From Bacteroidota bacterium (lineage in GTDB: Bacteria > Bacteroidota > Bacteroidia > Bacteroidales > JAIFNC01), in assembly GCA_020047935.1 (NCBI GenBank), contig JAIFNC010000057.1:1-44475 (forward strand): a stretch of DNA of 44,475 nucleotides. The letters run 5' to 3'. The stretch's first letter is position 1, and the number at the start of each line of letters is the position of its first letter. The position numbers and the translations under genes are program-made. The notes under the pieces were generated by a model. It was given only the letters and a program-made list of their open reading frames with translations. It was not told the DNA's origin and searched no databases. This document shows, piece after piece, positions 1,882-41,846 of this stretch.

Positions 1882-3435
1882 TTAATAAAGTATAAATTTA
1901 CGTAATCTTTCACTAACTTTAATGAAGTATTCATTAAGTAAATTTTCCTTTTCGGTGTCATTGTAATATTCTGTATCTTCCAATGATACACCCAATGAAA
2001 TTAATAATTTAAGCATAATATCTTTGGTTTCTATAGATGCTTTTGACATGAACTTTACCCAAAATGGATGTTCTTGATTTATTTCTAAAATATATAAACT
2101 ATGTTCTTTAACTGCTTTAAACATTAAACCATTTTCACCAAATCTAACAAATCTGTAGTCACAAAATTTATCATCACGGCTTCTTGTTTGTCCTGGTTTA
2201 CTACCAGGGGTTTTTATTTCTTTTATTTCAACTGGTTCTTCTCTTTTTTTGTTCATTCCACGTAACTTAGGAATATCAATAAATGGTGTGATGTTAATAC
2301 TTTTAATTGAATCATCTAATTCTTTTTTAATATCATCACTTGGTTCGTTTGATGTTTCCTTATTCTCTTCCTTACTTTTAATACTTTTAATATAAGGTTT
2401 GAATGATAGTTGACAAACATCCCTAAAACCTTGGTCAATATCATTTTTATCTGTTTCATGAATCATTTTATTAAATGTTGAGCCAAACAAGTCATCACAA
2501 TCACCATTAATAAATAATTCAATTCTTAATCCATTTAAATGACCATCACCCAATTTTCCAACCATACCCAAATCCAAACCAGACCCAACTAATCTATTAT
2601 TTCTGTAGATATATAGTCCTGCATTTGATTGATTTCTATTTATTTTTCGGGATATTGTTTCATTAACTTTTTCAATATCATAAATACTAAATTTAAAATC
2701 GTGTTCATCATATTTGAATTTCTCATTGGATGTTAAACATTTTGTATAATTTTCTTTGCGATACATTGGGTCAAAACTTTCAACAATTTCGTTATTAACG
2801 TATATCTTAATATTCGACTCATCAATAAAAAATTTGTAGATTAATGATATTTTATTTTTCAATGTTTCTTTAAATATAGTAATATTATTGTTTGTTACTC
2901 TGTCTAATTTAGTTATCGTTACAATAGTTCCAGTATCAGAATTACCATTTAATTGTTTGAACTCATCATACTCATCAGAAGAACCAATCCTAACAGGTAT
3001 CTGAAATTGATTACCTTTAATCAGTTCATCTAAATCATATGTTGCCACATAAAATTCATCATTGTCTGATTTAGTTCTGATTTCAAACTCCCTACCAATA
3101 GATAAAGCAGCAGCTTTTAGTCCAGTACCATATGAACCTAAATCTAATGTTTTGTTTTTACCTGTTATAGCGCCAAGCTTAAAAGCTTCGTCAAGTGTGT
3201 TAATGTCCATACCACACCCATCATCACAAATTTTAATGTAATCATAATCTTCCTTGGACTTTTTTACGATAATCCTAACATTCTTAGAATTAACATCAGT
3301 ATCCAGCGAGTTATCAACAATATCTGCAATTGCAGTATAATTATTATAACCTGAATTCCTCAACGTAGTTAAGAAATTTACATTTGGTGTCACATCTATT
3401 TGCGACTTTTTAATTTTTAATTCACTCATAATCAA
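1882..3435 (-). CDS. GHKL (Bergerat-fold, MORC/MutL-like) ATPase
   Basis: 517 aa. N-box IADIVDNSLD, G1 box ICDDGCGMD and G2 box GSYGTGLKAA in the N-terminal third, followed by a long C-terminal region with no motif I recognise. Confidence 0.75.
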   Translation of the reverse strand: MIMSELKIKKSQIDVTPNVNFLTTLRNSGYNNYTAIADIVDNSLDTDVNSKNVRIIVKKSKEDYDYIKICDDGCGMDINTLDEAFKLGAITGKNKTLDLGSYGTGLKAAALSIGREFEIRTKSDNDEFYVATYDLDELIKGNQFQIPVRIGSSDEYDEFKQLNGNSDTGTIVTITKLDRVTNNNITIFKETLKNKISLIYKFFIDESNIKIYVNNEIVESFDPMYRKENYTKCLTSNEKFKYDEHDFKFSIYDIEKVNETISRKINRNQSNAGLYIYRNNRLVGSGLDLGMVGKLGDGHLNGLRIELFINGDCDDLFGSTFNKMIHETDKNDIDQGFRDVCQLSFKPYIKSIKSKEENKETSNEPSDDIKKELDDSIKSINITPFIDIPKLRGMNKKREEPVEIKEIKTPGSKPGQTRSRDDKFCDYRFVRFGENGLMFKAVKEHSLYILEINQEHPFWVKFMSKASIETKDIMLKLLISLGVSLEDTEYYNDTEKENLLNEYFIKVSERLRKFILY

Positions 3436-3528
3436 TTTTTTTAATTTTTAATACTAATTATTTTTATTATTTTTTCGTAATTTAAATATTACTATTCAAA
3501 TTACTTCACAAATGTATGAAAATTTTTA

Positions 3529-4176
3529 TTATAAAACAACATTTGTATCATTGTTTTCACTATTTTTAACCTCTTTATTCTTTTTTCTACGTTCAGCACT
3601 TCTACGTCCGTACATTTTCCCACTGAAACTAGCCATTAAACTAACCAAGTCAGTAACCAAATCTTCCTGTTCACTAACATCATTCTTTTCAATGTGAATA
3701 ATCTCAACACCATAACTACTAAACATTCGTTCAATGAAGTTATATTGAAATCGTGTTAACCTATCCTTATGTTCGATTATAACTTTATTAACTTTCTTAT
3801 CAATAACTAAATTAGTCAGTTTAATAAACCCATTTCTTGTATCAGATAGACCCGAACCAACATCTTTAATAATGAAACCAACATTAAGTTTCTTCTTAGC
3901 ACAGTATTCACTTAAACGTTGTGATTGTCTATCTAAGTCACCTTTTTGTTTCTGTTCATGTGAGCTAACACGAGAATAGGTCGCAACCAAATCGGACGTT
4001 TCTACAACACTTTTATTAATTCCGATATATTCATCCAACTGTTCTTGTTGGTATCGTCTATGACCACCAGTAGTGGTTATAGGTATAAGTACACCTGACT
4101 TACCCCAACGCCTTAATGTTTCTTTTGCCACATTAAGATATTCTGATGCTTGTTTTAATGTTAACAGTTTACTCAT
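3529..4176 (-). CDS. tnpA: IS607-type serine recombinase/transposase (MerR-like HTH + resolvase core)
   Basis: HTH LTLKQASEYLNVAKETLRRWGKSG...GGHRRY, then YSRVSSHEQK (catalytic Ser), DVGSGL and KDRLTRF. Start taken at MSKLL (ATG 4176). Confidence 0.9.
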   Translation of the reverse strand: MSKLLTLKQASEYLNVAKETLRRWGKSGVLIPITTTGGHRRYQQEQLDEYIGINKSVVETSDLVATYSRVSSHEQKQKGDLDRQSQRLSEYCAKKKLNVGFIIKDVGSGLSDTRNGFIKLTNLVIDKKVNKVIIEHKDRLTRFQYNFIERMFSSYGVEIIHIEKNDVSEQEDLVTDLVSLMASFSGKMYGRRSAERRKKNKEVKNSENNDTNVVL

Positions 4177-4177
4177 T

Positions 4178-4381
4178 CTATTCCTCAATATTTTTTATAT
4201 GATTCAGAATCATAGATTTTGATTCATCTAATAATTTTTGGAATTCTTCAACGGTAATGTCTTCATCCAATTCAAATACGTTTGGATAAACATCACCATT
4301 TTCAAGTTCATATTCGGTTTTAGAAACACGAACAACTTTCATATTTTTTTCTTCCATAATTTTTATTATTTTATTCTTCAT
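4178..4381 (-). CDS. Hypothetical small acidic protein (67 aa)
   Basis: ORF ends at TAG 4178-4180, 1 nt before the tnpA ATG (TAGAATG junction). No motif recognised. Confidence 0.4.
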   Translation of the reverse strand: MKNKIIKIMEEKNMKVVRVSKTEYELENGDVYPNVFELDEDITVEEFQKLLDESKSMILNHIKNIEE

Positions 4382-4554
4382 ATATAAATATATTAATTTT
4401 TAAAAAAAGTTTGTTTTTATTGTATATATTTTTTTATTTTTGTGTAATTTTGTTTAATTTTTGTTAAACAGTTGATTTACCCTTTCTTTTCTTAATTTGT
4501 GTATGAATTTACTGCTAACTTTAATAATTTCAAGACCTAACAATGTTTTGTATA

Positions 4555-5712: not shown

Positions 5713-6489
5713 TTATATTAATATTTTATTAATTGATTCTTTATCTTGTGAAAAGATTGCTGGATCTGTTGATACCCATTTATTTCTTTTTGCACCATTA
5801 ACGTCAAATTCTTGTTTAACGATAAGTCTACCACGTTTTTGTTTAACGGGTAAGTCATTCCAATTAATACCTTTTTGGTAACATAACTCTTGCATATCAT
5901 TCTGATTCTTACCGTTCAATTCTTTAGCCGAATATAGTGATTGTGCAACTGATGATATACTATTTCTTACAGTATCTTGCTGTCTCCATTGAAGATTATT
6001 TAATACTTCGTCTTTAAATGGTATAGTAAACGCTCTACTATCAAATTGTGCCATTTTAAAATCAGAAATTATTTTACTAATCATTAATCCATCGTATTCG
6101 TTAATTGGTTTTTCATTAAAAAACCTCATAATTCTTAATTGATTAAATTTTTCAGTTGTCATTGATGCGGATATACTTGTCATTTTTTGTACTTCCCCAT
6201 CAAACCAAGCATCAGTAGTTATACTGTCAAAATCAGTAAGTACTATTGTGATTTCATCTGATTGTACAAACGCTAACTTAGCACCTTGGATGTTAGCACA
6301 AAGATATTTAGCTGTTTCATCCATATCTTCAATTAAACCAACATCAAACGGTTTTTTTAGTCCTTTTGTGTAATTTTTAAATGAACGCCCATCTAATCTA
6401 ATTATAGTGTATGTTCTTCTTGGAAGATAAGTTCTTGACCTTTCTTCATAAAATTTTTTTTGTCGTATCGACAAATTATCTTTACTCAT
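5713..6489 (-). CDS. Thg1-like protein (tRNA-His guanylyltransferase family, 3'-5' nucleotidyltransferase)
   Basis: IIRLDGRSFKNYTKGLKKPFD, then AFVQSDEITIVL. These match the Thg1/TLP metal-binding signatures (RxDGRxF and SDE) at the usual spacing. Confidence 0.65.
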   Translation of the reverse strand: MSKDNLSIRQKKFYEERSRTYLPRRTYTIIRLDGRSFKNYTKGLKKPFDVGLIEDMDETAKYLCANIQGAKLAFVQSDEITIVLTDFDSITTDAWFDGEVQKMTSISASMTTEKFNQLRIMRFFNEKPINEYDGLMISKIISDFKMAQFDSRAFTIPFKDEVLNNLQWRQQDTVRNSISSVAQSLYSAKELNGKNQNDMQELCYQKGINWNDLPVKQKRGRLIVKQEFDVNGAKRNKWVSTDPAIFSQDKESINKILI

Positions 6490-9244: not shown

Positions 9245-9276
9245 TTTGGTTATGCCATCTAAATTATATATCTTTG
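9245..9276 (+). promoter_or_regulatory. Promoter of the cas operon
   Basis: TTTG 9245-9248, 20 nt, TATCTTTG 9269-9276. The ATG follows 24 nt downstream. Confidence 0.55.
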
Positions 9277-9300: not shown

Positions 9301-10362
9301 ATGAAAAAAGTAAAAACTATTCTATTAAAAGTAGAATTAAAAGGTAATGGTATTGTAAATTTTGATAGTGGCGATCAAAAATATATATGGAATAAAAACG
9401 CAACTGATAATGGACACGAAAAAAGTCCATATGATAATGTTTCTTTTGCTAAAAAAAGATGGTACAAAGAAAATGGTAAAACAACGCATAAAATAATTAT
9501 TTCGAGCAATTGTCTTCGACATAATATATTTTCCAATGACGTATTGTTTCAATCACCAAACATTATGAATAATAAAAATCTTTTATACTCAATGATTGGT
9601 TCACCAGGTTCACTATTAAGAGGTTATTTATTCGCTCAAAAAGATGCTACATCAATACATAGATCAAGTGTTCTGAATATTACTGATGCTCAGCAAACAA
9701 ACGAGGCGATATCATCAATAGAAACATTCGCCAGAAGTGGTGAAAAAGTTACTGATGAAAATAAATCAGATACAAGTTTCTTTAAAAAAGAATCTATTGG
9801 TGATATTACTTATGAAGCTCTTGGTTCAATTGATTTAATGCAATTACAATTTGTCAGTTGTGATGAAATATTTGATCGACTAGCATTTAATCCTGATGAT
9901 TTTGAAGAATATAAAAAATCTATGGTGACAAGATTTCCAGATTTCAATCCAACATTAGGTTATTATCAAATTAAAAATAGTGTAATCGAATTACCTGAAT
10001 ACGGCATTAAACTTTCCGAAGAAAACACTGTTTCATTAACTAAAGAGTTATTAACACGTATTTTAAACACAAACATACGAACATCTGGCGCGTATGCTGA
10101 GGTTGTGAAAGTTTCTTATAAATTGGTGTACGATGCTTTTGAAAATAAAATGTCTAATAAAGATGGTTGGGTTGAAATAAGTCAAAAATCTATTGACGAT
10201 TTATATTTTGAACCACAAGATTATTATGAAAATTACGATTCTGAAACAGCATCGGAATTAAGAAAATCTTTAACTGAAATATCTCGTTTAAAAAAGGAAA
10301 AAAATAAAGAAGAGGCGGACGCTAAAAACAAAGAAAAGAAAAAAACTAAAACTGAAAAATAA
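9301..10362 (+). CDS. cas7: Cas7-like backbone subunit (putative), with a Lys-rich C-terminal tail
   Basis: First gene of the operon that also holds cas6, the array and cas3. HKIIISSNCLRHNIFS resembles the Cas7 'ISSQSLKRxxR' segment. The tail reads KKEKNKEEADAKNKEKKKTKTEK. The assignment rests on context plus a weak motif. Confidence 0.5.
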   Translation: MKKVKTILLKVELKGNGIVNFDSGDQKYIWNKNATDNGHEKSPYDNVSFAKKRWYKENGKTTHKIIISSNCLRHNIFSNDVLFQSPNIMNNKNLLYSMIGSPGSLLRGYLFAQKDATSIHRSSVLNITDAQQTNEAISSIETFARSGEKVTDENKSDTSFFKKESIGDITYEALGSIDLMQLQFVSCDEIFDRLAFNPDDFEEYKKSMVTRFPDFNPTLGYYQIKNSVIELPEYGIKLSEENTVSLTKELLTRILNTNIRTSGAYAEVVKVSYKLVYDAFENKMSNKDGWVEISQKSIDDLYFEPQDYYENYDSETASELRKSLTEISRLKKEKNKEEADAKNKEKKKTKTEK

Positions 10363-10364
10363 TT

Positions 10365-11261
10365 ATGAAATATTTAAAATTAACATTTAAAAATGCAGGA
10401 TTTTTCATAATTAATAATGGTACTAAAGATTTTGTTTTCGATATAAATGGACAACGAAAACGTAAGGATGCGTTTATGTCAAAACAACAAAAAGTAAGTA
10501 TATCGGTAAATCAAATTAGTAATATGTTGCACGTATTAATGGGTGAAAGACCCAGTGCAACATATAGGGAAACTTATATTAAGTCAATTCCATATATTTT
10601 TGAAGTCGCCCAAAATTCATATATTAAAATCGATAATCCAAGATTCTCTTTTGTGGATAAAAAGACACAAGATACAAAATTTTATTATCAATCAGAAACC
10701 ATTACTACCCGAAAATCAGTTTGGAATAGTTTCAGTAAAACTAAAGATCTTGTTTATTGGAAACGAATTGAAAATGCGTTAACCGATGATGATAATTCTA
10801 AATATATTGAAATGATTTCATTATTTAGTGAAATTCTTGGTTATAACGTGTTAACTAAACCTGCTGAAGAGGTGGTTGAAGAATTAAGACTTAAACACCC
10901 TTATAATCAAAAAATTAATGATTTTAAATCATCATTAAAAGGAAAAACGCCAATTATAAAATTTATTGATGGTGATTATTGGGCTAATGGTACTGGTAAT
11001 GGTGATTTAAATAAAAATTCAAGAACATTGATTACAACGAATAATGGTATTGAAAAAATTATTAGATTGTCAGGGTCAATAATTATACCATTAAATGATA
11101 ATGACATTGAAAAAATACGCAATTCCAAATCAACAGCAACTTTACTTGATGGTGGCGTTGTATGGGTCGAAGATTTAATTGACGAAAATGATTTTGGTAT
11201 TATTGAATTAATTGAATACGTTAATATTAATAAATTAGAAGAATATGAGAATAAAATTTAA
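10365..11261 (+). CDS. cas5: Cas5-like (or Cas5/Cas8-like) subunit, putative
   Basis: Starts 2 nt after the cas7-like stop and overlaps cas6 by 17 nt. VNQISNMLHVLMGERPS is reminiscent of the Cas5 N-terminal helix. Assigned mainly by position. Confidence 0.4.
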   Translation: MKYLKLTFKNAGFFIINNGTKDFVFDINGQRKRKDAFMSKQQKVSISVNQISNMLHVLMGERPSATYRETYIKSIPYIFEVAQNSYIKIDNPRFSFVDKKTQDTKFYYQSETITTRKSVWNSFSKTKDLVYWKRIENALTDDDNSKYIEMISLFSEILGYNVLTKPAEEVVEELRLKHPYNQKINDFKSSLKGKTPIIKFIDGDYWANGTGNGDLNKNSRTLITTNNGIEKIIRLSGSIIIPLNDNDIEKIRNSKSTATLLDGGVVWVEDLIDENDFGIIELIEYVNINKLEEYENKI

Positions 11262-11949
11262 TTTCACAAAAAATACTACACCAGTAAATATTAATAATCA
11301 ATCTGATGTAAATTATTATATACATAAATGTTTAGGTGATAATAATCCATACCATGATGCTAAAAATGATTATTCAATATCTAATCTACAAGGTGGTAAA
11401 CTTATAAAGGGTACAAAAAATCTTCAGTTTGATAATGGTGGGTTTATTACTATAACATCATTAAATACCATTTTTATTAATGATATTATTGGGGGAATTA
11501 TGTCAAATCCACAATTGAAATGGGGAATGGTATTTAAAAATGTCGAATTTATTAATGAAAACTTTATTAATGGATGGAATCATTTTGCTACTTTATCACC
11601 TTTTATTATTAAAAAATATTCGGATAAAAACACTTATTCATTTGCCACAATCAATGATAATGATTTTAATACTATCGTCAAAAATCATATTGTTAATAAA
11701 CTGACAAAAATTTATCCTACCATCAAACTGGATAACTTTGATGTACAAATTAAAAATCATCCATCACATAAAGTGTCTAAAGTTAGGGTTAAAAATGTTT
11801 TAAATATCGGTAATCAATGCCACGTAAGTATTTTCACAACTAAAGATGTTGCCGAAAAAATTTATAATATTGGGTTAGGACAATCAACAGGGTCAGGTTT
11901 TGGTACAATATATAAAACAGAAAATCGTTCTACTTATAAATTAGAATAA
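11245..11949 (+). CDS. cas6: Cas6 endoribonuclease
   Basis: N-terminus MRIKFNF and the C-terminal glycine-rich loop GLGQSTGSGFGTI (the GhGxxxxxGhG Cas6 signature). Lies directly upstream of the array. Confidence 0.8.
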   Translation: MRIKFNFTKNTTPVNINNQSDVNYYIHKCLGDNNPYHDAKNDYSISNLQGGKLIKGTKNLQFDNGGFITITSLNTIFINDIIGGIMSNPQLKWGMVFKNVEFINENFINGWNHFATLSPFIIKKYSDKNTYSFATINDNDFNTIVKNHIVNKLTKIYPTIKLDNFDVQIKNHPSHKVSKVRVKNVLNIGNQCHVSIFTTKDVAEKIYNIGLGQSTGSGFGTIYKTENRSTYKLE

Positions 11950-11990
11950 AAAAAATGGTGAAGGTTAAACTATATTATATTATTAATAGT

Positions 11991-11998
11991 TATATTTG
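11991..11998 (+). promoter_or_regulatory. Candidate -7 box in the CRISPR leader
   Basis: TATATTTG lies 52 nt before repeat 1 in an A/T-rich 101-nt leader (11950-12050). No clear -33 element. Confidence 0.3.
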
Positions 11999-12050
11999 TA
12001 TCGTCAAACCATCCTTAAATGGTTTAATTTCAATGAATTATATAAAACCT

Positions 12051-12613
12051 ACTGTATCTTATCCAATTCCGCAAGGGAATCACAACTTTACAACATTGTT
12101 ATATATTACCGTGATTACTGTATCTTATCCAATTCCGCGAGGGAATCACAACTGAATATTATTATGGTGAAGATATGTGAGAACTGTATCTTATCCAATT
12201 CCGCAAGGGAATCACAACAATGTGGGTGTACTATAATATTAAAAATATACTGTATCTTATCCAATTCCGCAAGGGAATCACAACGGTGACACATATACTG
12301 TTACATACAATGGTACTGTATCTTATCCAATTCCGCAAGGGAATCACAACAATATTAGGTCATTATAGTGTTTTTTACGACTGTATCTTATCCAATTCCG
12401 CAAGGGAATCACAACACAAAGGGTGATGTTTCAATTTCGCCCCATACTGTATCTTATCCAATTCCGCAAGGGAATCACAACAAAAATAACTTTGCCTTGC
12501 CTTGATTAAAAACTGTATCTTATCCAATTCCGTAAGGGAATCACAAGGGAACAGCTAAAAGTAATAACAATGATTTCACAGTTTCTTATCCAATTCCGTA
12601 AGGGAATCACAAC
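12051..12613 (+). CRISPR. CRISPR array, 9 repeats and 8 spacers
   Basis: 36-nt repeat ACTGTATCTTATCCAATTCCGCAAGGGAATCACAAC starting at 12051, 12117, 12183, 12249, 12315, 12380, 12446, 12512 and 12578. Spacers are 30, 30, 30, 30, 29, 30, 30 and 30 nt, all different. The last two repeats are degenerate, so the leader is on the cas6 side. Confidence 0.97.
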
Positions 12614-12679
12614 TAAATAAGGTTGAATTCTTTGGGGTCGGTCTTCATTTGTTTTTTTTTATATTATTCCATACAGGAA

Positions 12680-12711
12680 TTTGTTTATATGAAATATTTG
12701 TATTATCTTTG
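12680..12711 (+). promoter_or_regulatory. Promoter of cas3
   Basis: TTTG 12680-12683, 20 nt, TATCTTTG 12704-12711. ATG 12728 follows 16 nt downstream. Confidence 0.5.
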
Positions 12712-12727
12712 TACCAAAATAAAAATT

Positions 12728-14977
12728 ATGATTGAAAAACTTTTATCAAATAGTAACGGTACGAATCTTATAACCCATTTAAAAGCAACATCTAAAATTG
12801 CTGGCATTCTTTGTGATCGTATGGGGTTATCCGATGATAAAAAAATTATAATACAAACATCAGCATTATTACATGATATTGGTAAATCATATAGTGTGTT
12901 TTATGATTATATTAGTACTGGCGTTGAATCTGATGAATTTTTGACTAATAAAATTTTACATCATGAAGTATCTTGGGCGGTATTATTATATCTATTGGTG
13001 GATAATAAATATAAACACAATATTCTTCATGCTATTTATTGGCATCATGCTAAAGACGCGTCAACAATGAATAAAGAATATGCATCAAGTATTATCGAAA
13101 AAATTAATGTTAATGATAGACTACAAATAGTTCAACTATTTAACTTTTTAACTAATGATAATAAAACTATTGATGTTTTTAATGATGACATTAATAATGA
13201 CGAATATCCTATTTACTTTAAAAACAAATCTAACGATAATAACAACGCTATTAATTTTTTAACAATGGGATGCCTAGTATCTGCCGACAGATATGTGTCT
13301 ATATTTAATCAAGAAAAAATATTAATCAATGATGATTATTGTTTTGAAATTGTTAATAAAATTGAAATATGTAATAAACGACCATATTCAATTCCTGAAC
13401 ATTATGATCTTGAACGATTTAATAAACAAGTTGAATATGTTTCATTAATACCAAACAATACTACTACTATTTTTAAAGCACCTGCAGGTTTTGGTAAAAC
13501 CCCAACGGGTCTTATATGTTGGAATACTAAATCAAGAAAAAAATTGATATGGGTGTGCCCAAGAAACGTTGTGGCCGAAACGGTTTATCAAAATATCATT
13601 AATGAACTAGATGCGTTAAACCTTAATGATACTAAAGTTGAATTATATTTAACAAGTAATGTAGTTAAATCAAATTATAATAATTACTCGGATTTTTCAT
13701 CTGATATTATCGTCACTAATATTGATAATTTTCTTAACCCTACAATTAATAACTGGGTTAAAAATAGAATGTTTAATATATTCTCTTCTGATGTGATTTT
13801 TGATGAATTTCATGAATTTATTGGGGATGAACCATTATTTGCATCGTTTGTTAATGTAATGAGAATTAGACATAGATATACAAACTCTAATACGTTATTA
13901 CTTAGTGCCACCCCAACACTAATGAATTTTTTGTGGGATACTATCAATAATGAAACTATTATTTTACCTAATAATCAAACACATTACCCACCAGTACACA
14001 ATAAACCTTATAATTTTAATTATGTATCTGACTTTAATAGTATATTACCACAAAAAAACACTTTATTTGCTACAAATGCTATTAAATCTTCCCAAATTTT
14101 AACTATAAATAAACATTATTCAAATATAGTACATAGTAAATTTACAGATACTGATCGAAAACGAATTATTACTAATTTATTTAATATGTATGGTAAAAAT
14201 TCTACTGAAGAAAAAAAAGACGTTATATCTGCACCACTTGTTAGGGCCGCGATGGATTTATCATTTCAAAATTTATATATTATTATCAAATCAATTGAAG
14301 ATTTTTTACAAACAATTGGTAGAATAAATAGGTGGAATGAATATGATTATGCTAATGTTTATGTGATCATTGACATTAATAACCCTACTATTAAAAAATC
14401 TGAAATTGCCGCAATCAAATATACGTATAATGAAACTTTATACAATATTTGGGTTGATTTTATAAAAAAAGAAATGGTTGATGGTAATTCATATAATCTA
14501 ACTGAATTATACAATTTATATAATAAATTTAATATAACATATAAAACTAATATTATTGAATATATTAACAATAAATTTATTAACAGTACTGTTAATCTAT
14601 CTAAAATATATCCGAAAAAATATTTAATACCAGAAAACGACACTAGCACTAAAATTAAAACTTCTAAATTAAGAGATAACGGAAATGAAAAAATATATTG
14701 TATATATCGTAATTATTTTAATGATGATTATACCGAACCTTTTTTAATTGATATGGAAGATGAAAATATTAATGAAAATAGTTTGAAATTTATTGTTAAA
14801 AATATTGAACGTTTAATAACTGATGAAAGATTTGAATATACTAAATATACTTTGAAATATATTCAAAATGATATTAATAAACTAAAAATAATGGCTACAA
14901 ACCCTAAAACACCATATATATCTTTCAATAAAGTTTACCACCAAAAACTTGGTATAATAGATAAAAATTTATGTTAA
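12728..14977 (+). CDS. cas3: Cas3 (N-terminal HD nuclease + SF2 helicase)
   Basis: HD motifs: LLHDIGKS, HHEVSW, YWHHAK. Helicase motifs: APAGFGKTP (I), FDEFHEF (II, DExH), LLSATP (III), VHSKFTDTDR, QTIGRINRW (VI). The track start 12623 is a TTG upstream of the promoter; ATG 12728 (MIEKLL) is preferred. Confidence 0.88.
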   Translation: MIEKLLSNSNGTNLITHLKATSKIAGILCDRMGLSDDKKIIIQTSALLHDIGKSYSVFYDYISTGVESDEFLTNKILHHEVSWAVLLYLLVDNKYKHNILHAIYWHHAKDASTMNKEYASSIIEKINVNDRLQIVQLFNFLTNDNKTIDVFNDDINNDEYPIYFKNKSNDNNNAINFLTMGCLVSADRYVSIFNQEKILINDDYCFEIVNKIEICNKRPYSIPEHYDLERFNKQVEYVSLIPNNTTTIFKAPAGFGKTPTGLICWNTKSRKKLIWVCPRNVVAETVYQNIINELDALNLNDTKVELYLTSNVVKSNYNNYSDFSSDIIVTNIDNFLNPTINNWVKNRMFNIFSSDVIFDEFHEFIGDEPLFASFVNVMRIRHRYTNSNTLLLSATPTLMNFLWDTINNETIILPNNQTHYPPVHNKPYNFNYVSDFNSILPQKNTLFATNAIKSSQILTINKHYSNIVHSKFTDTDRKRIITNLFNMYGKNSTEEKKDVISAPLVRAAMDLSFQNLYIIIKSIEDFLQTIGRINRWNEYDYANVYVIIDINNPTIKKSEIAAIKYTYNETLYNIWVDFIKKEMVDGNSYNLTELYNLYNKFNITYKTNIIEYINNKFINSTVNLSKIYPKKYLIPENDTSTKIKTSKLRDNGNEKIYCIYRNYFNDDYTEPFLIDMEDENINENSLKFIVKNIERLITDERFEYTKYTLKYIQNDINKLKIMATNPKTPYISFNKVYHQKLGIIDKNLC

Positions 14978-15222
14978 CAAATGATGATTTAATTAAACTT
15001 GGTTTTAAACCTATACCACATTTTACTATTGGTAATTCCGTTACTTATGATTTAGGTAGAGGAAGACATTTATCTGCAGGGAATGTTGGTACTCCTAATG
15101 AAATGGTCTTTATTTGTGCAACTGATTATAAGGATAAAACTAACATTACCGATCTTGTTTGTTTACATAACTATGATTATGATGGATACATTACTGAAGA
15201 GAAAATTAAAATATATATGTAG
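14971..15222 (+). CDS. Hypothetical protein (83 aa) translationally coupled to cas3
   Basis: Its ATG overlaps the cas3 stop (ATGTTAA). No Cas1, Cas2 or Cas4 motif recognised. Confidence 0.45.
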   Translation: MLTNDDLIKLGFKPIPHFTIGNSVTYDLGRGRHLSAGNVGTPNEMVFICATDYKDKTNITDLVCLHNYDYDGYITEEKIKIYM

Positions 15223-15399: not shown

Positions 15400-16935
15400 T
15401 TATAATCCGAATTGTTTGATTAATAAATCACTTATACTTAATTCCGCATGTTTTTCTGCTTCTAATTGAGCTTCCAATTTTTCAATGGTTTGTCCTACGT
15501 TTGGTAATCGTCTTCTTAGTTCATTTAAACCGTCTGGTTGATCGATTTCTGATACGCCATGGATTCTATCCATTCCAACAATATCTTCGTTAGGATTAAA
15601 CCCATAATCACGTAATTCTGTTATTAATTGTATAACATTTGCTTTATCATCCTCATTTCCATTATAAACACTTGGTATCATTATGTAAGCATATGGTTTA
15701 TTCATTAATTCCAAATCATTAACACAAATTACGTTAGTGTCAATTTTTTTCCTATCATCAATATCTGGTCTGGCTGACCTACCATATGTTTGTAAAAATT
15801 TACTCTTTGATAATGTCCTTAATGGCATTATACCAGAAAACCCACTAACATCAATTCCCTCAGCTAATATATCATAATGTAATACTATTAGTTTCTTAGT
15901 GATATCTAAACCATCCATCTTTAATCTTCTTAAAAAATCTTGACGATTTACTTGTTCACCATTGATATTATTACCAACTTCACCATTAGATGCTACGGCA
16001 TATATACTAACGCCAGCATTAATTAATTGACTATATTCCCTACTGTTAAGGAAATTAATAATATCCTGTGTACCCTTTGCCGATACTAAAACCTTTGGTA
16101 ATCTCTTAGTTAATATTTTACCATGTTGTTCAAAGGTATCTTTAATGATTTTATTTAATGATCGGTTATAATCATCTACATTATAAACACCATCAGTAAT
16201 AACAAAATGTAATCTCGGTCTAACCATCTTACCCAATTCAATCGCTTGCCTTGGTATCATACTATATAATAGTTCTCCGTATGACTCACTATTATTCATT
16301 CCCCTACCTGTATCTGATGGCGTCGAAATTGTGGTTGCGGTAAAGAAATAACACCTTTCAGATTTTAATGTATGCAATATATCATGAAATTGCTCCTGTA
16401 CCAAATAATGGGCTTCATCATTTAATATTATAGATATTGGATTAAACCCTTCTCTAGCATCCTCGATTCTTTCTGCCGAATTATATGTACTGAAAAATAT
16501 TAATGGTAAATTTTGTTCCTTAGCCTTAAACATCATTCCTCGTATGTCTGACATACTTGTTCCCGAACCAATTTCAGAAAATGGTATACTTGCACCATCA
16601 AGATTAGCCTTGATACGAATATCTTCTAACTCCTTTTCATTTGTCTTTCCACCACTATGTACAAACATATAACGAGCTTCTATCTTCGCATCAACTAAAA
16701 ATCCATAAACCTCTTTTAAAAGTTGATACGTTAATACTATTCTCGGTGCATTAACAACATACATACGAAAACCACTATTCTTTATAATGTCATCAGCAAT
16801 TATCGCCGCCTGACAGAATGTCTTACCTACACCCGTTGGCATACATACTATACCTTTTTCTCTCGATATTGCACTAGCCACGGCTTCCTTTTGATATGGA
16901 TATAACCTATCAAGTATATTTATTCTACTTTCCAT
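15400..16935 (-). CDS. SF2 (DEAH/ResIII-type) helicase
   Basis: CMPTGVGKT (I), LNDEAHYL (II), FFTATT (III), QTYGRSARP (VI). Confidence 0.8.
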   Translation of the reverse strand: MESRINILDRLYPYQKEAVASAISREKGIVCMPTGVGKTFCQAAIIADDIIKNSGFRMYVVNAPRIVLTYQLLKEVYGFLVDAKIEARYMFVHSGGKTNEKELEDIRIKANLDGASIPFSEIGSGTSMSDIRGMMFKAKEQNLPLIFFSTYNSAERIEDAREGFNPISIILNDEAHYLVQEQFHDILHTLKSERCYFFTATTISTPSDTGRGMNNSESYGELLYSMIPRQAIELGKMVRPRLHFVITDGVYNVDDYNRSLNKIIKDTFEQHGKILTKRLPKVLVSAKGTQDIINFLNSREYSQLINAGVSIYAVASNGEVGNNINGEQVNRQDFLRRLKMDGLDITKKLIVLHYDILAEGIDVSGFSGIMPLRTLSKSKFLQTYGRSARPDIDDRKKIDTNVICVNDLELMNKPYAYIMIPSVYNGNEDDKANVIQLITELRDYGFNPNEDIVGMDRIHGVSEIDQPDGLNELRRRLPNVGQTIEKLEAQLEAEKHAELSISDLLIKQFGL

Positions 16936-16936
16936 A

Positions 16937-17518
16937 TTATAATTCTTTTACGATTTCTCTTACTTTATCCCAAAATATAAAATTATTATCTAATAAACTT
17001 CTAAAATCATTATAACCAAAACATTTAACTTTACTTTTAAACATCTCTTGGTCAGTATAGAAATTTAAACCAGTTGCCGTGGTAAATACAAAATGCCTAT
17101 AATTATTTGGATTTTCCATATCAGCAACAACTCCATGACTTAACATTCCATCCGTAAGCAAATTTCCTAAACTGTCTCTATTACTAGTCAATTCAGTTAA
17201 TACATTACTTCGATATTTTACTTGAACTACACTCTTTTCTCTATTAAGGTTTATTCCTAATCCATCAACACCATTATCGTTTTCTTGAACTGGTACATAG
17301 TTATAAACCCCAACACGATTGTCCGTTGAATGTAATAACAAAAACAACTCAACAAAGAACTCAAACGCATCACCCTTATACTTTTCAGAATCATATCTTA
17401 ATGGGTCAATTAATGACTCCCTTTCAATATTCCTCATAAGTTGTGACATCCTATTAACACCATCAAATAATCTGGGTAAACTATGACTCTTTGTTATAAA
17501 ATTATGTTGTAAATTCAT
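16937..17518 (-). CDS. PD-(D/E)xK (Mrr-like) restriction endonuclease domain protein
   Basis: GDAFEFFVELFL ... GVDGLGINLNREKSVVQVKYR (D...QxK core). Ends 1 nt before the helicase ATG. Confidence 0.6.
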   Translation of the reverse strand: MNLQHNFITKSHSLPRLFDGVNRMSQLMRNIERESLIDPLRYDSEKYKGDAFEFFVELFLLLHSTDNRVGVYNYVPVQENDNGVDGLGINLNREKSVVQVKYRSNVLTELTSNRDSLGNLLTDGMLSHGVVADMENPNNYRHFVFTTATGLNFYTDQEMFKSKVKCFGYNDFRSLLDNNFIFWDKVREIVKEL

Positions 17519-17623
17519 ATCATGTTGATTTTTAATGTGTTTTTATTTATACTATCACAACAATATCCATTTTTGGGTGAAATTATAAATGTAATACTTT
17601 TTATTTTTGAAACATATAGATTA

Positions 17624-19111
17624 TTAAATAAACTCTTTCCAAAAATCTTTTCTAAGTAATGAAATTGCTTTATAATTATATCTATGTCTTCCAACACCTG
17701 TCGTACCATCACTAAATGACATTAACTCCATAAATTTTGGGTTAAGCATTGCTCTTTGAATATATGGTAGATTTTTTGGTTCATCAACAATTGCATAAGA
17801 AAATTGTGTCATCGCATATTCACCACTTTCATCAATAACTGGCGATGACGCACCTCCATTACTAAAAATAACTTTAGATATACCAAAATGACCATGTTCT
17901 TTTGTACTTGAATAACGAAGATTTAAAGAACCATCTTTATATGTAACATAAACAACTGGATATTTAAACACATCGGTTTGTTCTTTTGATACATATTCTT
18001 TTTGTATATGGTATTTACAATTATATAATATACTTACATTATCCTCACCTTTTTTAGCAAGAAGTTTTTGATATTCCTTATACATTCCGTTAGGTATAAA
18101 TTTCATTTTAGAAATATCTATTCTTTGAGTTGTACCATCCATACATTTAATTTTTGTAAACATAGTGTTAGATACGTTATGTAGACAATAGAAATCGTAT
18201 GTTGTATATGCACCGAAAGTACTAAAACCGTCATTAGTATTATGTAATTCCAAATAAAGTAATTGTTTAGATTTAAGCAATGTTTTAACTTTATCAAAAC
18301 CATTACCCAAACTTCTCCAACCATCAGGATGTACAGCGACTAGATAACCACCATCAACCAATTGGTCAACAGTTTTAATAACAAACTTATCCCATAGAAC
18401 ATGTGCAGAACCACGGTTAGGATTACCATCATTATACGGGGGATTCATAACAATAACATCAAATTTATCCACACCCCAATCTTTCATTCTCTCATTGAAA
18501 TCATCAGTTAAATAACTTCCATGATAAATATTCAATGCATATTCATCTTTTGGATCGAATGAATATAAATAAAGAAATAAATTCTTTGCCTGTAACTCAC
18601 ATACATATATCATATTCTCTAATATATGTTTATATCTTAATTTTTCATCTGGCTCAAAACTAATAAGACCTTTCATAAGTCTTTCTATTACTACTGAAAA
18701 GAACGTTCCTACACCATTACAAGGATCTAACCATTTAAGATTTGGATTTGTCCATACTTCATATGGTAAGGTATCTAACATTTCTTCTACTAATGTAATA
18801 GGTGTCATTACCTCACCCATAGTTTTTACTTCTGTTGGTGATACCTTAACATATTCACGAATCATTCCAACAACATCTTTAATATGCGACATTTCACTAT
18901 AGTTATCAGTATCCACTGTTTTCTGAATCTTACTACACATTAATCGATGCTCTACATTGTTCTCTTCCAGTATAGTCAATATCATTGACCTACGTTTCTC
19001 TATCGGAGCATTATTAATCATAGATTTAATTTCGGTAGTCATTCCATTAATACCATCGATTATCATATCTTGGATAAGATTTTCGTAAGTGTTTTTTAAT
19101 TCTGTATTCAT
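17624..19111 (-). CDS. N6-adenine DNA methyltransferase (gamma class, Eco57I/TaqI-like)
   Basis: Motif I LDPCNGVGTFF, motif IV VIVMNPPYN, and a long C-terminal target-recognition region. Confidence 0.8.
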   Translation of the reverse strand: MNTELKNTYENLIQDMIIDGINGMTTEIKSMINNAPIEKRRSMILTILEENNVEHRLMCSKIQKTVDTDNYSEMSHIKDVVGMIREYVKVSPTEVKTMGEVMTPITLVEEMLDTLPYEVWTNPNLKWLDPCNGVGTFFSVVIERLMKGLISFEPDEKLRYKHILENMIYVCELQAKNLFLYLYSFDPKDEYALNIYHGSYLTDDFNERMKDWGVDKFDVIVMNPPYNDGNPNRGSAHVLWDKFVIKTVDQLVDGGYLVAVHPDGWRSLGNGFDKVKTLLKSKQLLYLELHNTNDGFSTFGAYTTYDFYCLHNVSNTMFTKIKCMDGTTQRIDISKMKFIPNGMYKEYQKLLAKKGEDNVSILYNCKYHIQKEYVSKEQTDVFKYPVVYVTYKDGSLNLRYSSTKEHGHFGISKVIFSNGGASSPVIDESGEYAMTQFSYAIVDEPKNLPYIQRAMLNPKFMELMSFSDGTTGVGRHRYNYKAISLLRKDFWKEFI

Positions 19112-20438: not shown

Positions 20439-20753
20439 GTTTAAAATTATTTAACATAAAACTTATTGTAGATTAGAATAAAAGTATTATCTTTGTATTG
20501 TAATAATTACTTACTTACCCATATTGTATCTACTTAATATATTCCACAAAGATACAAAAAATTCATCAGACTGCCAAACATTTTAGGTATTATTTCTTCA
20601 GGTTCAGGAAGGATCATCACAGGATAAAACTCACACCTGGAACTTTAACAATGTTAAAAAATGTATATTTTTTGTATATAGTAAAGAAAACTACATACAG
20701 AAATTTTTAATTATTTATATTTATACAAAATATTATGTATATAAATACAAAAA

Positions 20754-33914: not shown

Positions 33915-34131
33915 ACTGAATTATTTTATACAAAGATAATACATTTACTTATACTACACAAGCGTTTTAACACTTTTAACATTGTTAATGTGCCAGCTGT
34001 GAGTTTCTTCTAGCTACCCTCTTCAGATCCAGTCAGAAAATTCCGAGATCCTTCCAGGCATAAAACTCACAACCAGCATTTTAACATATACATATACAGA
34101 AAACCCCCGACTGTTATGCCGAGGGTTTAAC
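33915..34131 (-). promoter_or_regulatory. Intergenic regulatory cassette (56-nt centre family)
   Basis: -7 complement 33931-33938. Palindrome 33975-33989. Arms 33993-34006 and 34063-34077. Terminator about 34104-34125. Confidence 0.65.
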
Positions 34132-39724: not shown

Positions 39725-40327
39725 CTAACGTAGCCCTATCCCGAACGCTGATTCAAGTTCTATTTTTAATTTTTCTATAATATCTTTGTCAATGTTGTCT
39801 GACATACCATTTTTCCAAATGTTATCGCCATAAAAACCCCAGCAACTATCTGTCATTTCATCATCAACATAAACTTCAAATCCGTACACATCACCAGTAA
39901 GATATTGGTCGTATGTTTCAACTTCGGCGTTTAAATTTTCAACCGCCTTGTCATACCATTTTTTTGTACAGTATTTAATGTTGAAAGTTTTTTTCATCAT
40001 TTCCTTTGTAATGATTGCGAACCCAACTTGCCCGCTATCCCATTTACAACTGAAAGAACTTGTTGAAATTGTAATGCCCGAGTGGTCATATAAATATAAG
40101 GGCATAATCACAATCGGTTTTTCATTTCGGATAATATCCGCCTTCATTTCCTCCCAATTATTATTATCATGGAAATTATAATCATGTTTATCGCCCAAAT
40201 TATATCTTGAATGAAAACATATCATTTTAACTATGTTGCCATCGGTATAATCTAAATCGCGAGGACTTTGTGCATTTTCGTCTTGAATAATTTCTAAACG
40301 AATGTTGTCTTTTTTAATTGTTGTCAT
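39725..40327 (-). CDS. Hypothetical protein (200 aa)
   Basis: Track ORF between cassettes. Carries an LYLYDHSGITIS motif; family not recalled. Confidence 0.65.
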   Translation of the reverse strand: MTTIKKDNIRLEIIQDENAQSPRDLDYTDGNIVKMICFHSRYNLGDKHDYNFHDNNNWEEMKADIIRNEKPIVIMPLYLYDHSGITISTSSFSCKWDSGQVGFAIITKEMMKKTFNIKYCTKKWYDKAVENLNAEVETYDQYLTGDVYGFEVYVDDEMTDSCWGFYGDNIWKNGMSDNIDKDIIEKLKIELESAFGIGLR

Positions 40328-40586
40328 AATAGTGTTGTTTTAAATTGTTATACAAAGATAATACATTTACTTATACTACACAAGTGTTTTAACACTTTTA
40401 ACATTGTTAATGACCCAGTTATGAGTTTCTTCTAGCTACCCTCTTCAGATCCAGTCAGAAAATTCCGAGACCCTTCCAGGCATAAAACTCACAAACAGCG
40501 TTTTAACATATCGTAATACAGAAAAACCCACGTTTCACAACGTAGGTAATTCTTTGTCTGAACTATATCAAAAACCAAATATAAAT
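40328..40586 (-). promoter_or_regulatory. Intergenic regulatory cassette (56-nt centre family)
   Basis: -7 complement 40353-40360. Palindrome 40397-40411. Arms 40415-40428 and 40485-40499. Terminator 40527-40546. Confidence 0.65.
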
Positions 40587-41204: not shown

Positions 41205-41570
41205 TTATTTCCAGCCGTATTCCTTTTTAACAGTTGCCTCGTAATTGTCAGTCTTTTCTACATAACTGTCAATTCGGTCTGTTAACTCATCACAGTAAAC
41301 CATTTCTAATGTTTCTTTAATCTCACATTTATAATCTAACAAATACACGGTATATGTATCGTTATAGTCTAATGTGATTAACACATAACCTTTGTGCTTA
41401 AATCCTGATACCTTGAACAATAAACCTTTACCCTGAAAATTAACATAATCTCTTGCTCCCCAGCTCATTAAAATGCTAACACCACCAGCCCGAAGCTGTA
41501 ACAAAGTTTCTTGTGCATTGAGAACGTCTTTCAATAACGACTCAATTTTTTTTACATTTTCGCTTGTCAT
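41205..41570 (-). CDS. Hypothetical protein (121 aa)
   Basis: Track ORF between cassettes. Confidence 0.6.
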   Translation of the reverse strand: MTSENVKKIESLLKDVLNAQETLLQLRAGGVSILMSWGARDYVNFQGKGLLFKVSGFKHKGYVLITLDYNDTYTVYLLDYKCEIKETLEMVYCDELTDRIDSYVEKTDNYEATVKKEYGWK

Positions 41571-41846
41571 AATACTATTGTTTTAAATTGTTATACAAAG
41601 ATAATACTTTTATATCACCCGCACAAGCATTTTAACACTTTTAACATTGTTAATGACCCAGTTATGAGTTTCTTCTAGCGACCCTCTTCAGATCCAGTCA
41701 GAAAATTCCGAGACCCTTCCAGGCATAAAACTCACAACCAGCATTTTAACATTTCATATAACCACACAAAAAAGGGGCGAACCTAAATCCACCCCTCAAA
41801 ACACTTTGAAACTAAATGAAAAGTAACAAAGAGCAAACAACTTATA
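41571..41846 (-). promoter_or_regulatory. Intergenic regulatory cassette (56-nt centre family)
   Basis: -7 complement 41596-41603. Palindrome 41640-41654. Arms 41658-41671 and 41728-41742. Terminator 41774-41795. 41591-41697 matches 34481-34587 at 106/107 positions. Confidence 0.65.

Follow-up and report, generated by a model that had tools for sequence, protein, structure and literature searches.

A compact phage-borne type I CRISPR system whose array shares the repeat format of type II-C and type VI-B arrays and may borrow a host integrase

The stretch of DNA analysed here, 44,475 nt of contig JAIFNC010000057.1 (hereafter 'the window'), carries at 12051–12613 on the plus strand a CRISPR array set among cas genes. 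Together these form a phage-borne, minimal type I system: a standalone Cas3, a classical Cas6 and two subunits, one Cas7fv-like and one Cas5fv-like. No spacer-capture genes were found nearby, and in repeat size, spacer length and repeat ends the array matches the Cas9 and Cas13b arrays of Bacteroidota; the system may therefore borrow the enzymes of its host. In particular, we propose with middling confidence that Cas6 processes this type I array and that its format allows loading in trans by a host type II-C Cas1–Cas2.

The array and its cas genes

The array consists of nine 36-nt repeats (starting at 12051, 12117, 12183, 12249, 12315, 12380, 12446, 12512 and 12578; consensus ACTGTATCTTATCCAATTCCGCAAGGGAATCACAAC) and eight unique spacers, all of 30 nt except the fifth, which has 29 nt, with a repeat period of 66 nt and once of 65 nt. 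Coordinates and lengths thus bear out the layout given in the original prediction, which had been made from the sequence without database searches, and the variant positions it named are all exact: A23G in repeat 2, C22T and C36G in repeat 8, and T3A, A6T and C22T in repeat 9. Regular and near-identical repeats, unique spacers of 29–30 nt and flanking cas6 and cas3 genes mark the element as a CRISPR array. Its polarity is supported by three observations, namely the degenerate repeats at the distal end, a TAnnTTTG −7 box in the leader and, in relatives, spacer turnover at the cas6-proximal end; these place the leader beside cas6, where it had been predicted.

Two contigs of JGI metagenome 3300001765 hold the same DNA, and the array in them (contig 3300001765 MIS_1001800) does not differ from that of the window. 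A metagenome pattern scan gave no match to the window's own repeat, and a second, looser scan returned relatives only. Among the Rfam CRISPR-DR families the best matches, DR34 and DR46, had E = 7–8, far under the gathering threshold. We also considered and rejected a tenth, degenerate repeat at 12651–12686. The ATTCC...GGAAT element at 12666–12680 gives this segment a loose likeness to a repeat, but its identity of 18/36 is not above the window background, and it overlaps the cas3 promoter.

The Cas7fv-like protein matches the NCBIfam Cas7fv family at 1e-29 (under the family cut-off), PADLOC Cas7fv at 5e-22, Pfam PF28157 (Cas7fv-like) and, in the PDB, the Cas7fv chain 5o6u_C at E = 2.6e-17. 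Sequence-family searches gave no match for the 298-aa Cas5 candidate; it is, however, kept between cas7 and cas6 in all related loci, and its AlphaFold model (predicted local distance difference test score 83.6) had only two Foldseek matches at E <= 0.001, 5o6u_F (2.2e-5) and 9g44_B (3.5e-5), both of them I-Fv/I-F2 Cascade chains. Cas6 is matched by Pfam Cas_Cas6_C, TIGR01877 (3e-20), PADLOC Cas6b (4e-38) and the Pyrococcus furiosus Cas6 structure 3pkm, and Cas3 by Pfam HD, DEAD and Cas3-like_C_2 and by PADLOC Cas3fv (1e-56). Cas3 most likely starts at the ATG at 12728, since tblastn homology to its relatives begins there, at residue 36 of the TTG-started open reading frame (ORF). The cas7–cas5–cas6 operon holds no further ORF, and there is no Cas8 large subunit.

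Pattern scans of IMG/VR and JGI metagenomes recovered about 20 related repeat variants, on viral contigs of up to 596 kb. Most adjoin homologues of the window's cas7, cas5, cas6 and cas3 (25–67% identity), and the gene orders cas7–cas5–cas6–array–cas3 or cas3–cas7–cas5–cas6–array recur in many phage contigs, with no adaptation genes inside some 10 kb. All arrays of this family have 36-nt repeats, and their 220 unique spacers include 188 of 30 nt and 25 of 29 nt. Among the 21 aligned family repeats, G26 and the last nine nucleotides (AATCACAAC) are invariant.

In line with the original prediction, no cas1 or cas2, nor any cas4, was found in the annotated parts of the window. Scans with Pfam, NCBIfam and PADLOC found no Cas1, Cas2 or Cas4 among the cas-flanking ORFs, Pfam matches to the gene calls covering most of the window included none, and tblastn with type II Cas1 and Cas2 found neither in the window. 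The readable flanks (2–10 kb) of the related arrays held no adaptation genes either. An adaptation module of the phage's own, of type II-like descent, could sit elsewhere in its probably large genome and set the repeat format: the window and all related loci are fragments, and the relatives lie on contigs of 120–711 kb of which roughly 10–20 kb were read. Against this, neither Cas1 nor Cas2 was found in the 44 kb of the window, and among fetched viral loci totalling about 1.1 Mb they were found only in those with 47–48-nt II-C repeats; we consider such a module improbable.

A repeat format shared with type VI-B arrays

The original prediction noted a likeness between this repeat and those of Bacteroidota type VI-B (Cas13b) arrays, by comparison with the repeat of Bergeyella zoohelcum. 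A literature search for that string gave nothing, and it was confirmed in the genome of B. zoohelcum ATCC 43767 instead, where the repeat reads exactly GTTGGAACTGCTCTCATTTTGGAGGGTAATCACAAC and lies, with 30-nt spacers, beside a 1224-aa Cas13b. The identity of 23/36 between the two repeats, including the last nine nucleotides, was correct on recomputation. Outside the shared 9-mer they agree at 14/27 positions, compared with 6.7 ± 2.2 for shuffles (P ~0.0013), and the geometry described as that of VI-B, 36-nt repeats with spacers of about 30 nt, is seen in real Bacteroidota VI-B loci; the likeness thus exceeds chance. A sister phage family, with the family B repeat GTTGGTAATTATATTATTCCGTAAGGGAATCACAAC, shows 25/36 identity to B. 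zoohelcum by hand count, with GTTGG and AATCACAAC in common. On average, the phage family repeats match VI-B repeats at 13.4/27 positions outside the 9-mer, one another at 15.0/27, and the 36-nt II-C repeats of other phyla at 9.9/27. While the repeats are AT-rich and the comparison was picked after the fact, it is scarcely credible that the likeness is a coincidence of AT-rich composition, given the shuffle P of ~0.001 outside the 9-mer and a 9-mer that is invariant in 21 family repeats and common to hundreds of arrays.

An exhaustive search for repeats that end G[GT]AATCACAAC and recur about every 66 nt returned ten loci, eight of them real arrays. All eight are from Bacteroidota; seven are of VI-B type, four with Cas13b confirmed adjacent (L359, L360, L361 and L364), and one is an orphan. 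This orphan, at 19–252 of a Bernardetiaceae metagenome-assembled genome (MAG) contig (L356, DAISIL010000108.1), is built of the repeat GTTGTCAAATCCCTAAATTTGCAAGGGAATCACAAC, which agrees with the window repeat throughout its last 16 nt; the array lies at the contig end, and its 5.4-kb contig carries no cas gene.

Bacteroidota VI-B loci and the window thus share 36-nt repeats, 30-nt spacers, a leader-distal end GG(G/T)AATCACAAC, a locus without cas1 or cas2 and transcription from the leader (PMC8092290). They differ in that the window has no Cas13b, and in the rest of the repeat. VI-B repeats take the form GTTG...CAAC, whereas the window repeat, with the same lengths and the same 3' AATCACAAC, begins with ACTG (GTTGG in the sister phage family). 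Its hairpin, which would serve Cas6, lies about 5 nt further 3': the internal stem is at roughly 11–15/22–26 in B. zoohelcum compared with 16–20/26–30 in the window. Because the stems differ in position, the likeness is one of format and termini, not of fold.

These comparisons also bear on the idea that the array is a decoy or hijacking device, its transcripts mimicking host VI-B or II-C CRISPR RNAs (crRNAs) so as to load or poison Cas13b or Cas9, or to use host effectors. The 3' 12–16 nt are identical to those of some VI-B-type repeats, and it has been suggested that huge phages whose arrays have host-like repeats rely on Cas proteins of the host (PMC7162821). However, a full cognate effector set (cas7, cas5, cas6 and cas3) flanks the array and co-varies with it, and the window repeat differs from a VI-B direct repeat in where its hairpin lies and in lacking the 5' GTTG, which together make this explanation very unlikely.

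The same ends in type II-C arrays

A scan for arrays of at least three repeats ending AATCACAAC found at least 120 bacterial loci. Among the matches listed, nearly all have either 46–47-nt Bacteroidota repeats (...TTGAAAGCAAATCACAAC) or 36-nt repeats from several other phyla, and they are II-C arrays with cas9, type II cas1 and cas2 upstream. In the same set, a degenerate repeat lies at the far end in 16/26 arrays and at the near end in 0/26. With the cas genes upstream and the degenerate repeat at the far end, AATCACAAC is leader-distal both in II-C arrays and in the array of the phage. The predicted resemblance of the 3' end to VI-B repeats is therefore real, but AATCACAAC is above all a II-C hallmark, with VI-B a fellow borrower rather than the likely donor.

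Type II-C arrays share with the window the 5' (G/A)YTGT and 3' AATCACAAC termini, the leader polarity, the 29–30-nt spacers and, in some, 36-nt repeats. In contrast, most Bacteroidota II-C repeats are 46–47 nt long and end GCAAATCACAAC, and II-C arrays are transcribed towards the leader, their crRNA pairing with a trans-activating CRISPR RNA (PMC8092290). No cas9–cas1–cas2 set lies beside the array in the window; L201 and L174 have one. Counting the TnpB-like phage loci described below, one repeat format is common to four effector kinds, with the integrase carried by the II-C loci only. There is precedent for such sharing: in Flavobacterium columnare the VI-B array gains spacers through II-C Cas1 in trans (Hoikkala 2021; PMC8092290), and the II-C and VI-B repeats of nine species have in common a leader-distal GTTGT, the complement of ACAAC (PMC8092290).

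Spacer turnover and targets

If arrays of this family were still being loaded, related elements should carry different spacer sets, and three comparisons show that they do. Over 13.96 kb, L005 and L021 share 99.86% identity, and the difference between their arrays is in spacer 1, the cas6-proximal one. L273 and L281 carry spacers S1–S10, while L293 and L326, whose flanks are 94–98% identical to those of L273, carry T1 T2 T3 S4 S9 S10. L373 and L376 have one repeat in common and no common spacers. That near-identical phages differ in their cas6-proximal spacers points to spacers that still turn over in the relatives, with a signature of polarised acquisition and internal loss. This turnover is seen in relatives; the one further assembly found to contain the window array shows no change in it, and the array of a 330-kb phage is identical in three samples. 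Differences in array length among L380, L381 and L382 were discounted, as these assemblies have N gaps or are collapsed.

The spacers gave no targets. Searching 220 spacers against all fetched loci produced only matches of 16–23 nt; three spacers searched against IMG/VR with every sixth base free found none, nor did the whole array, and then 106 spacers, against 50,697 GenBank phages. With every protospacer search negative, no protospacer-adjacent motif (PAM) was found; the original prediction had proposed to infer one from such matches. Two short matches fall within a phage's own locus: spacer 7 of L312 matches 22/22 nt inside its own cas7 (L312:5530–5551), and spacer 4 of L286 matches 22/23 nt at L286:4693–4715.

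Hairpin and predicted crRNA processing

The minimum free energy fold of the repeat pairs 16–20 with 26–30 around the loop GCAAG (−4.6 kcal/mol, z = −1.5), which is the hairpin originally predicted. That prediction further read the repeat variation as hairpin-preserving; the five variant positions do all fall outside the ten stem positions, but this has P ~0.20 within the window array, so that the argument carries little weight. Comparison across the family is more informative. In the 21 related repeats the 16–20/26–30 register is paired in 81.9% of cells, compared with 15–63% in slid registers, and the covariation score of the alignment was reached by 0/500 shuffles. Pair 19–27 is CG in 11 repeats, AU in 3, UA in 3 and UG in 1; pair 20–26 is CG in 15 and UG in 6; and pair 18–28 is UA in 19/21. 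As pair 17–29 is kept in only 10/21, the family covariation supports a conserved stem consisting of a 3-bp core, 18–20/26–28, and not the predicted 5-bp stem. An alternative register with a GNRA tetraloop, 16–20/25–29, fits L312 and L322, but with 62.9% of cells paired overall it was dropped for the window repeat.

The base of the 18–20/26–28 stem coincides with the canonical Cas6 cut site, 8 nt from the repeat end. This fits the 5' handle AUCACAAC, which by analogy with other Cas6 systems would be the 8-nt 5' tag of each crRNA.

Promoters, leader and host phylum

The octamer TATCTTTG occurs in 37 copies in the window, compared with 3.0 ± 1.7 expected, and on the coding strand most copies precede an ATG by about 25 nt and follow a TTG by about 20 nt. 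The Bacteroidota sigma-A promoter has TAnnTTTG at −7 and TTTG at −33 (PMC7366714). These Bacteroidota-type −33/−7 boxes support a host in the phylum Bacteroidota and transcription of the array on the plus strand, both of which we infer from the promoter motifs only. The leader box, TATATTTG at 11991, lies about 50 nt before repeat 1 and is assigned as a promoter by motif alone. A Gp37/68-like protein was uninformative as to the host, its matches being spread over many host phyla. Coordinates of the array, the cas genes and these elements are collected in Table 1.

Table 1. Coordinates of the array, cas genes and promoter elements in the window
Feature	Position	Strand	Remarks
−7 box TATCTTTG for cas7	9269..9276	+	TTG ~20 nt upstream; cas7 ATG 24 nt downstream
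cas7fv-like backbone subunit, 353 aa	9301..10362	+	Profile and PDB matches
cas5fv-like subunit candidate, 298 aa	10365..11261	+	Fold match and conserved position
cas6 endoribonuclease, 234 aa	11245..11949	+	Classical Cas6/Cas6b type, not Cas6f
Leader	11950..12050	+	Candidate −7 box TATATTTG at 11991–11998; inverted repeat AAACCAT/ATGGTTT
CRISPR array	12051..12613	+	9 repeats of 36 nt, 8 spacers; repeats 8 and 9 degenerate
−7 box TATCTTTG for cas3	12704..12711	+	Its −33 TTG lies inside the ATTCC...GGAAT element, 12666–12680
Standalone cas3	12728..14977	+	HD nuclease and DEAD/DEAH helicase domains, no Cas2 fusion

At 20488–43650, mostly on the minus strand between 25.2 and 43.4 kb, a phage promoter consensus of roughly TTAAAAYGCTTGTG-N15-GTATTATCTTTGTAT, with the same over-represented TATCTTTG, lies upstream of about 30 small genes. 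Many of its copies are inside dispersed intergenic repeats of 100–215 bp that are 82–97% identical (e.g. 33923–34107, 40321–40509 and 41564–41752).

Loading in trans or an inherited format

In the mechanism that we propose, the array is a working one and would be transcribed on the plus strand from a Bacteroidota-type promoter in the cas6-side leader. Cas6 would cut each repeat at the base of the 3-bp-core hairpin (18–20/26–28), 8 nt from its end, as analogy with other Cas6 enzymes and the covariation suggest, so that each crRNA would start with AUCACAAC. Going by homology, these crRNAs would load a Cas8-less Cascade, which would recruit Cas3 against competitor or host DNA. New spacers would be inserted at the cas6-proximal end, as shown in the relatives, and the insertion would be made in trans by a host type II-C Cas1–Cas2 integrase, with the 36-nt repeat, the 30-nt spacer, the 5' (A/G)YTGT and the invariant leader-distal AATCACAAC as the likely recognition features.

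Several points weigh against this proposal. Our searches brought up neither a host genome or co-resident II-C locus nor any protospacer or PAM, and a comparison by eye found no junction motif common to phage, VI-B and II-C leaders. The window is part of a phage genome, and adaptation genes could lie elsewhere in it; about 10 kb of the window itself (roughly 15.8–20.6 and 24.2–27.3 kb) was covered for Cas1 and Cas2 by the type II tblastn alone. A II-C acquisition PAM may be unsuited to a type I effector. In thermodynamic terms the hairpin is weak, with 14/200 shuffles folding equally well, and the fold matches of the Cas5 candidate have a template modelling (TM) score of only 0.29. Finally, handle binding by Cascade could, alone, keep the 3' end of the repeat invariant.

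This last point is at the heart of the chief rival explanation, in which the format is inherited and nothing is borrowed at present. The phages would have captured an array of host II-C or VI-B type, or its repeat, long ago and kept AATCACAAC only as the 5' handle bound by Cascade (Cas5/Cas7), and spacers would differ because phage arrays had recombined or undergone deletion with one another, or through rare events in the past. In its favour, the last nine nucleotides have stayed invariant while the Cas proteins diverged to 25–30% identity, as a handle would; the comparison of L273 with L293 also shows internal spacer loss; and the array of the 330-kb phage was unchanged in its three samples. 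On the other hand, handle binding does not account for the recurrence of this end and of the 36/30 format in Cas9, Cas13b and TnpB-like arrays, and the spacers unique to each of two near-identical phages are leader-proximal. Furthermore, a chromosomal relative, L372, with a similar Cas7 divergence (38% identity), a Cas6e-type enzyme and a repeat ending ...GATTGAAAG, uses a different handle, so that the effector tolerates other handles. On balance we regard inheritance without current borrowing as rather unlikely, if less so than any of the other alternatives.

Two relatives deserve description here in their own right. L372 is at 10001–12640 of a Smithella MAG contig (CAZWCA010000061.1), with Cas7fv-like, Cas5-like and Cas6e-type (PF08798) genes and a mini-array of two repeats ending ...GGGGATTGAAAG; it has no cas3 up to the contig end, and its neighbours are ordinary metabolic genes. 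L371, at 3035–4490 of a Bacteroidia MAG contig (DATMPR010000018.1), has the repeat ACTGTTTACAACTTTTTTCTGTAAGGGAATTACAAC, with one change within the otherwise invariant 9-mer, and after its array comes a stretch of about 900 bp with some 15 eroded repeat remnants that keep only a TCC...GGAAT core.

Distribution of the system and of its repeat format

Among 5.8 billion proteins, relatives of the Cas5 candidate form only 44 clusters, all of them from metagenomes, annotated as 'hypothetical' and encoded on contigs that reach 711 kb; no homologue of the window Cas7 was found in the 50,697 GenBank phage records; and when 185,579 species genomes were scanned with one Cas7 peptide pattern, only two loci matched. 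A first genome scan with the pattern ATTCCNNNNNGGAATCACAAC was set aside as too loose, the matches listed including single chance ones only. Given only 44 clusters, and none in GenBank phage records, the compact Cas7fv-like/Cas5fv-like/Cas6/Cas3 type I system has probably not yet been characterised. Neither this type I variant nor borrowing by a phage from a host II-C system was found in the searchable literature, which included the 2025 classification (PMC12669027); a 2022 survey of virus-encoded CRISPR systems lies outside that scope.

The repeat format also extends beyond type I. In at least three loci, phage arrays with a VI-B-like 36-nt repeat, ATTGTGAATCATCCTTAAATGAAAGGTAATCACAAC, lie about 145 nt downstream of TnpB/Cas12f/Cas12u4-like genes, and these appear to be type V-U-like systems of phages, built on the same repeat format. 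The TnpB-like loci, from IMG/VR, are L317:3491–4766, L289:9241–10635, L313:1032–2755 and L288, with 4–6 repeats, 30-nt spacers and proteins of 311–415 aa. A broader possibility, which we put forward tentatively, is that Bacteroidota phages, many of them jumbo, carry at least two kinds of effector set that have no adaptation genes close by, the type I Cas8-less Cascade–Cas3 and a TnpB/Cas12f-like type V set, both with arrays (36/30, (G/A)YTGT...AATCACAAC) formatted for the host II-C Cas1–Cas2, which would make that integrase an adaptation hub across classes and replicons. If so, the host integrase, as a shared hub, would vaccinate the phage against its competitors.

Neighbouring genes

The other genes of the window are phage-like, and ARAGORN found no tRNA genes in it. 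Directly after cas3, an 83-aa ORF (14971–15222) has a 65% identical homologue (72% at the DNA level) in the 636-kb uncultured phage LR756504.1, beside which there is no array or cas gene. The minus strand by cas3 carries, at 15400–19111, three genes that may form a second module, of defence or anti-defence: a 511-aa ResIII/DEAD helicase with weak PbeA-like matches, a 193-aa ORF without matches and a 495-aa N6-adenine DNA methyltransferase. Also on the minus strand, at 3529–4188 and 5713–6489, are a serine recombinase/resolvase-like gene with MerR/helix-turn-helix domains and a Thg1-like tRNA-His guanylyltransferase.

Comparison with known systems

Among the closest known systems is the I-F2 (I-Fv) minimal Cascade of Shewanella putrefaciens CN-32 (PDB 5O6U, 9G44), which shares with the window the Cas7fv-like backbone, a Cas5fv-like subunit, the absence of Cas8 and dependence on Cas3. 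The differences are considerable: the window Cas6 is of the Cas6b/P. furiosus type and not Cas6f, its Cas3 stands alone rather than being a Cas2–3 fusion, no cas1 was found, and the system is phage-borne, with 36-nt repeats and 30-nt spacers. Type I-F repeats and spacers are 28 and 32 nt long. Of the features that define I-F2, then, the window has Cas7fv and Cas5fv (the latter by fold only) without Cas8, and lacks Cas6f, 28-nt repeats and a Cas2–Cas3 fusion; no Cas1 was found in it.

The systems of huge phages (Al-Shayeb 2020) are also phage-encoded; the relatives of the window system lie on contigs of 120–711 kb, and most huge-phage systems are without Cas1, Cas2 and Cas4; their type I variant, however, is without Cas6 and uses Cas5d. 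The type I-F system of Vibrio phage ICP1 is likewise phage-encoded, but has its own cas1 and cas2-3.

It is already known that phages carry CRISPR systems without adaptation genes, and that adaptation occurs in trans (PMC7162821, PMC8092290, PMC11656645). Besides the F. columnare VI-B array, plasmid type IV-A3 systems use host I-E adaptation (Benz 2024; PMC11656645). With both of these the present family shares an array lacking adaptation genes, the repeat format of an adaptation-competent system and polarised turnover: in the relatives, no adaptation genes occur in the locus and turnover among close relatives is polarised, and the motif held in common with adaptation-competent II-C systems is so at the level of the phylum. 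What differs is that here a phage type I system would be the borrower and a host class 2 system the lender, a pairing proposed from sequence alone. If correct, a virus keeps its own CRISPR memory current with the spacer-capture enzymes of its host, and repeat termini and spacer length report the integrase that loads an array, whichever effector reads it, making repeats usable to predict phage hosts and CRISPR cross-talk. Phages would then join single genomes (VI-B with II-C) and plasmids (IV-A3 with I-E) as settings of trans-adaptation, which would also reach across classes instead of staying within one.

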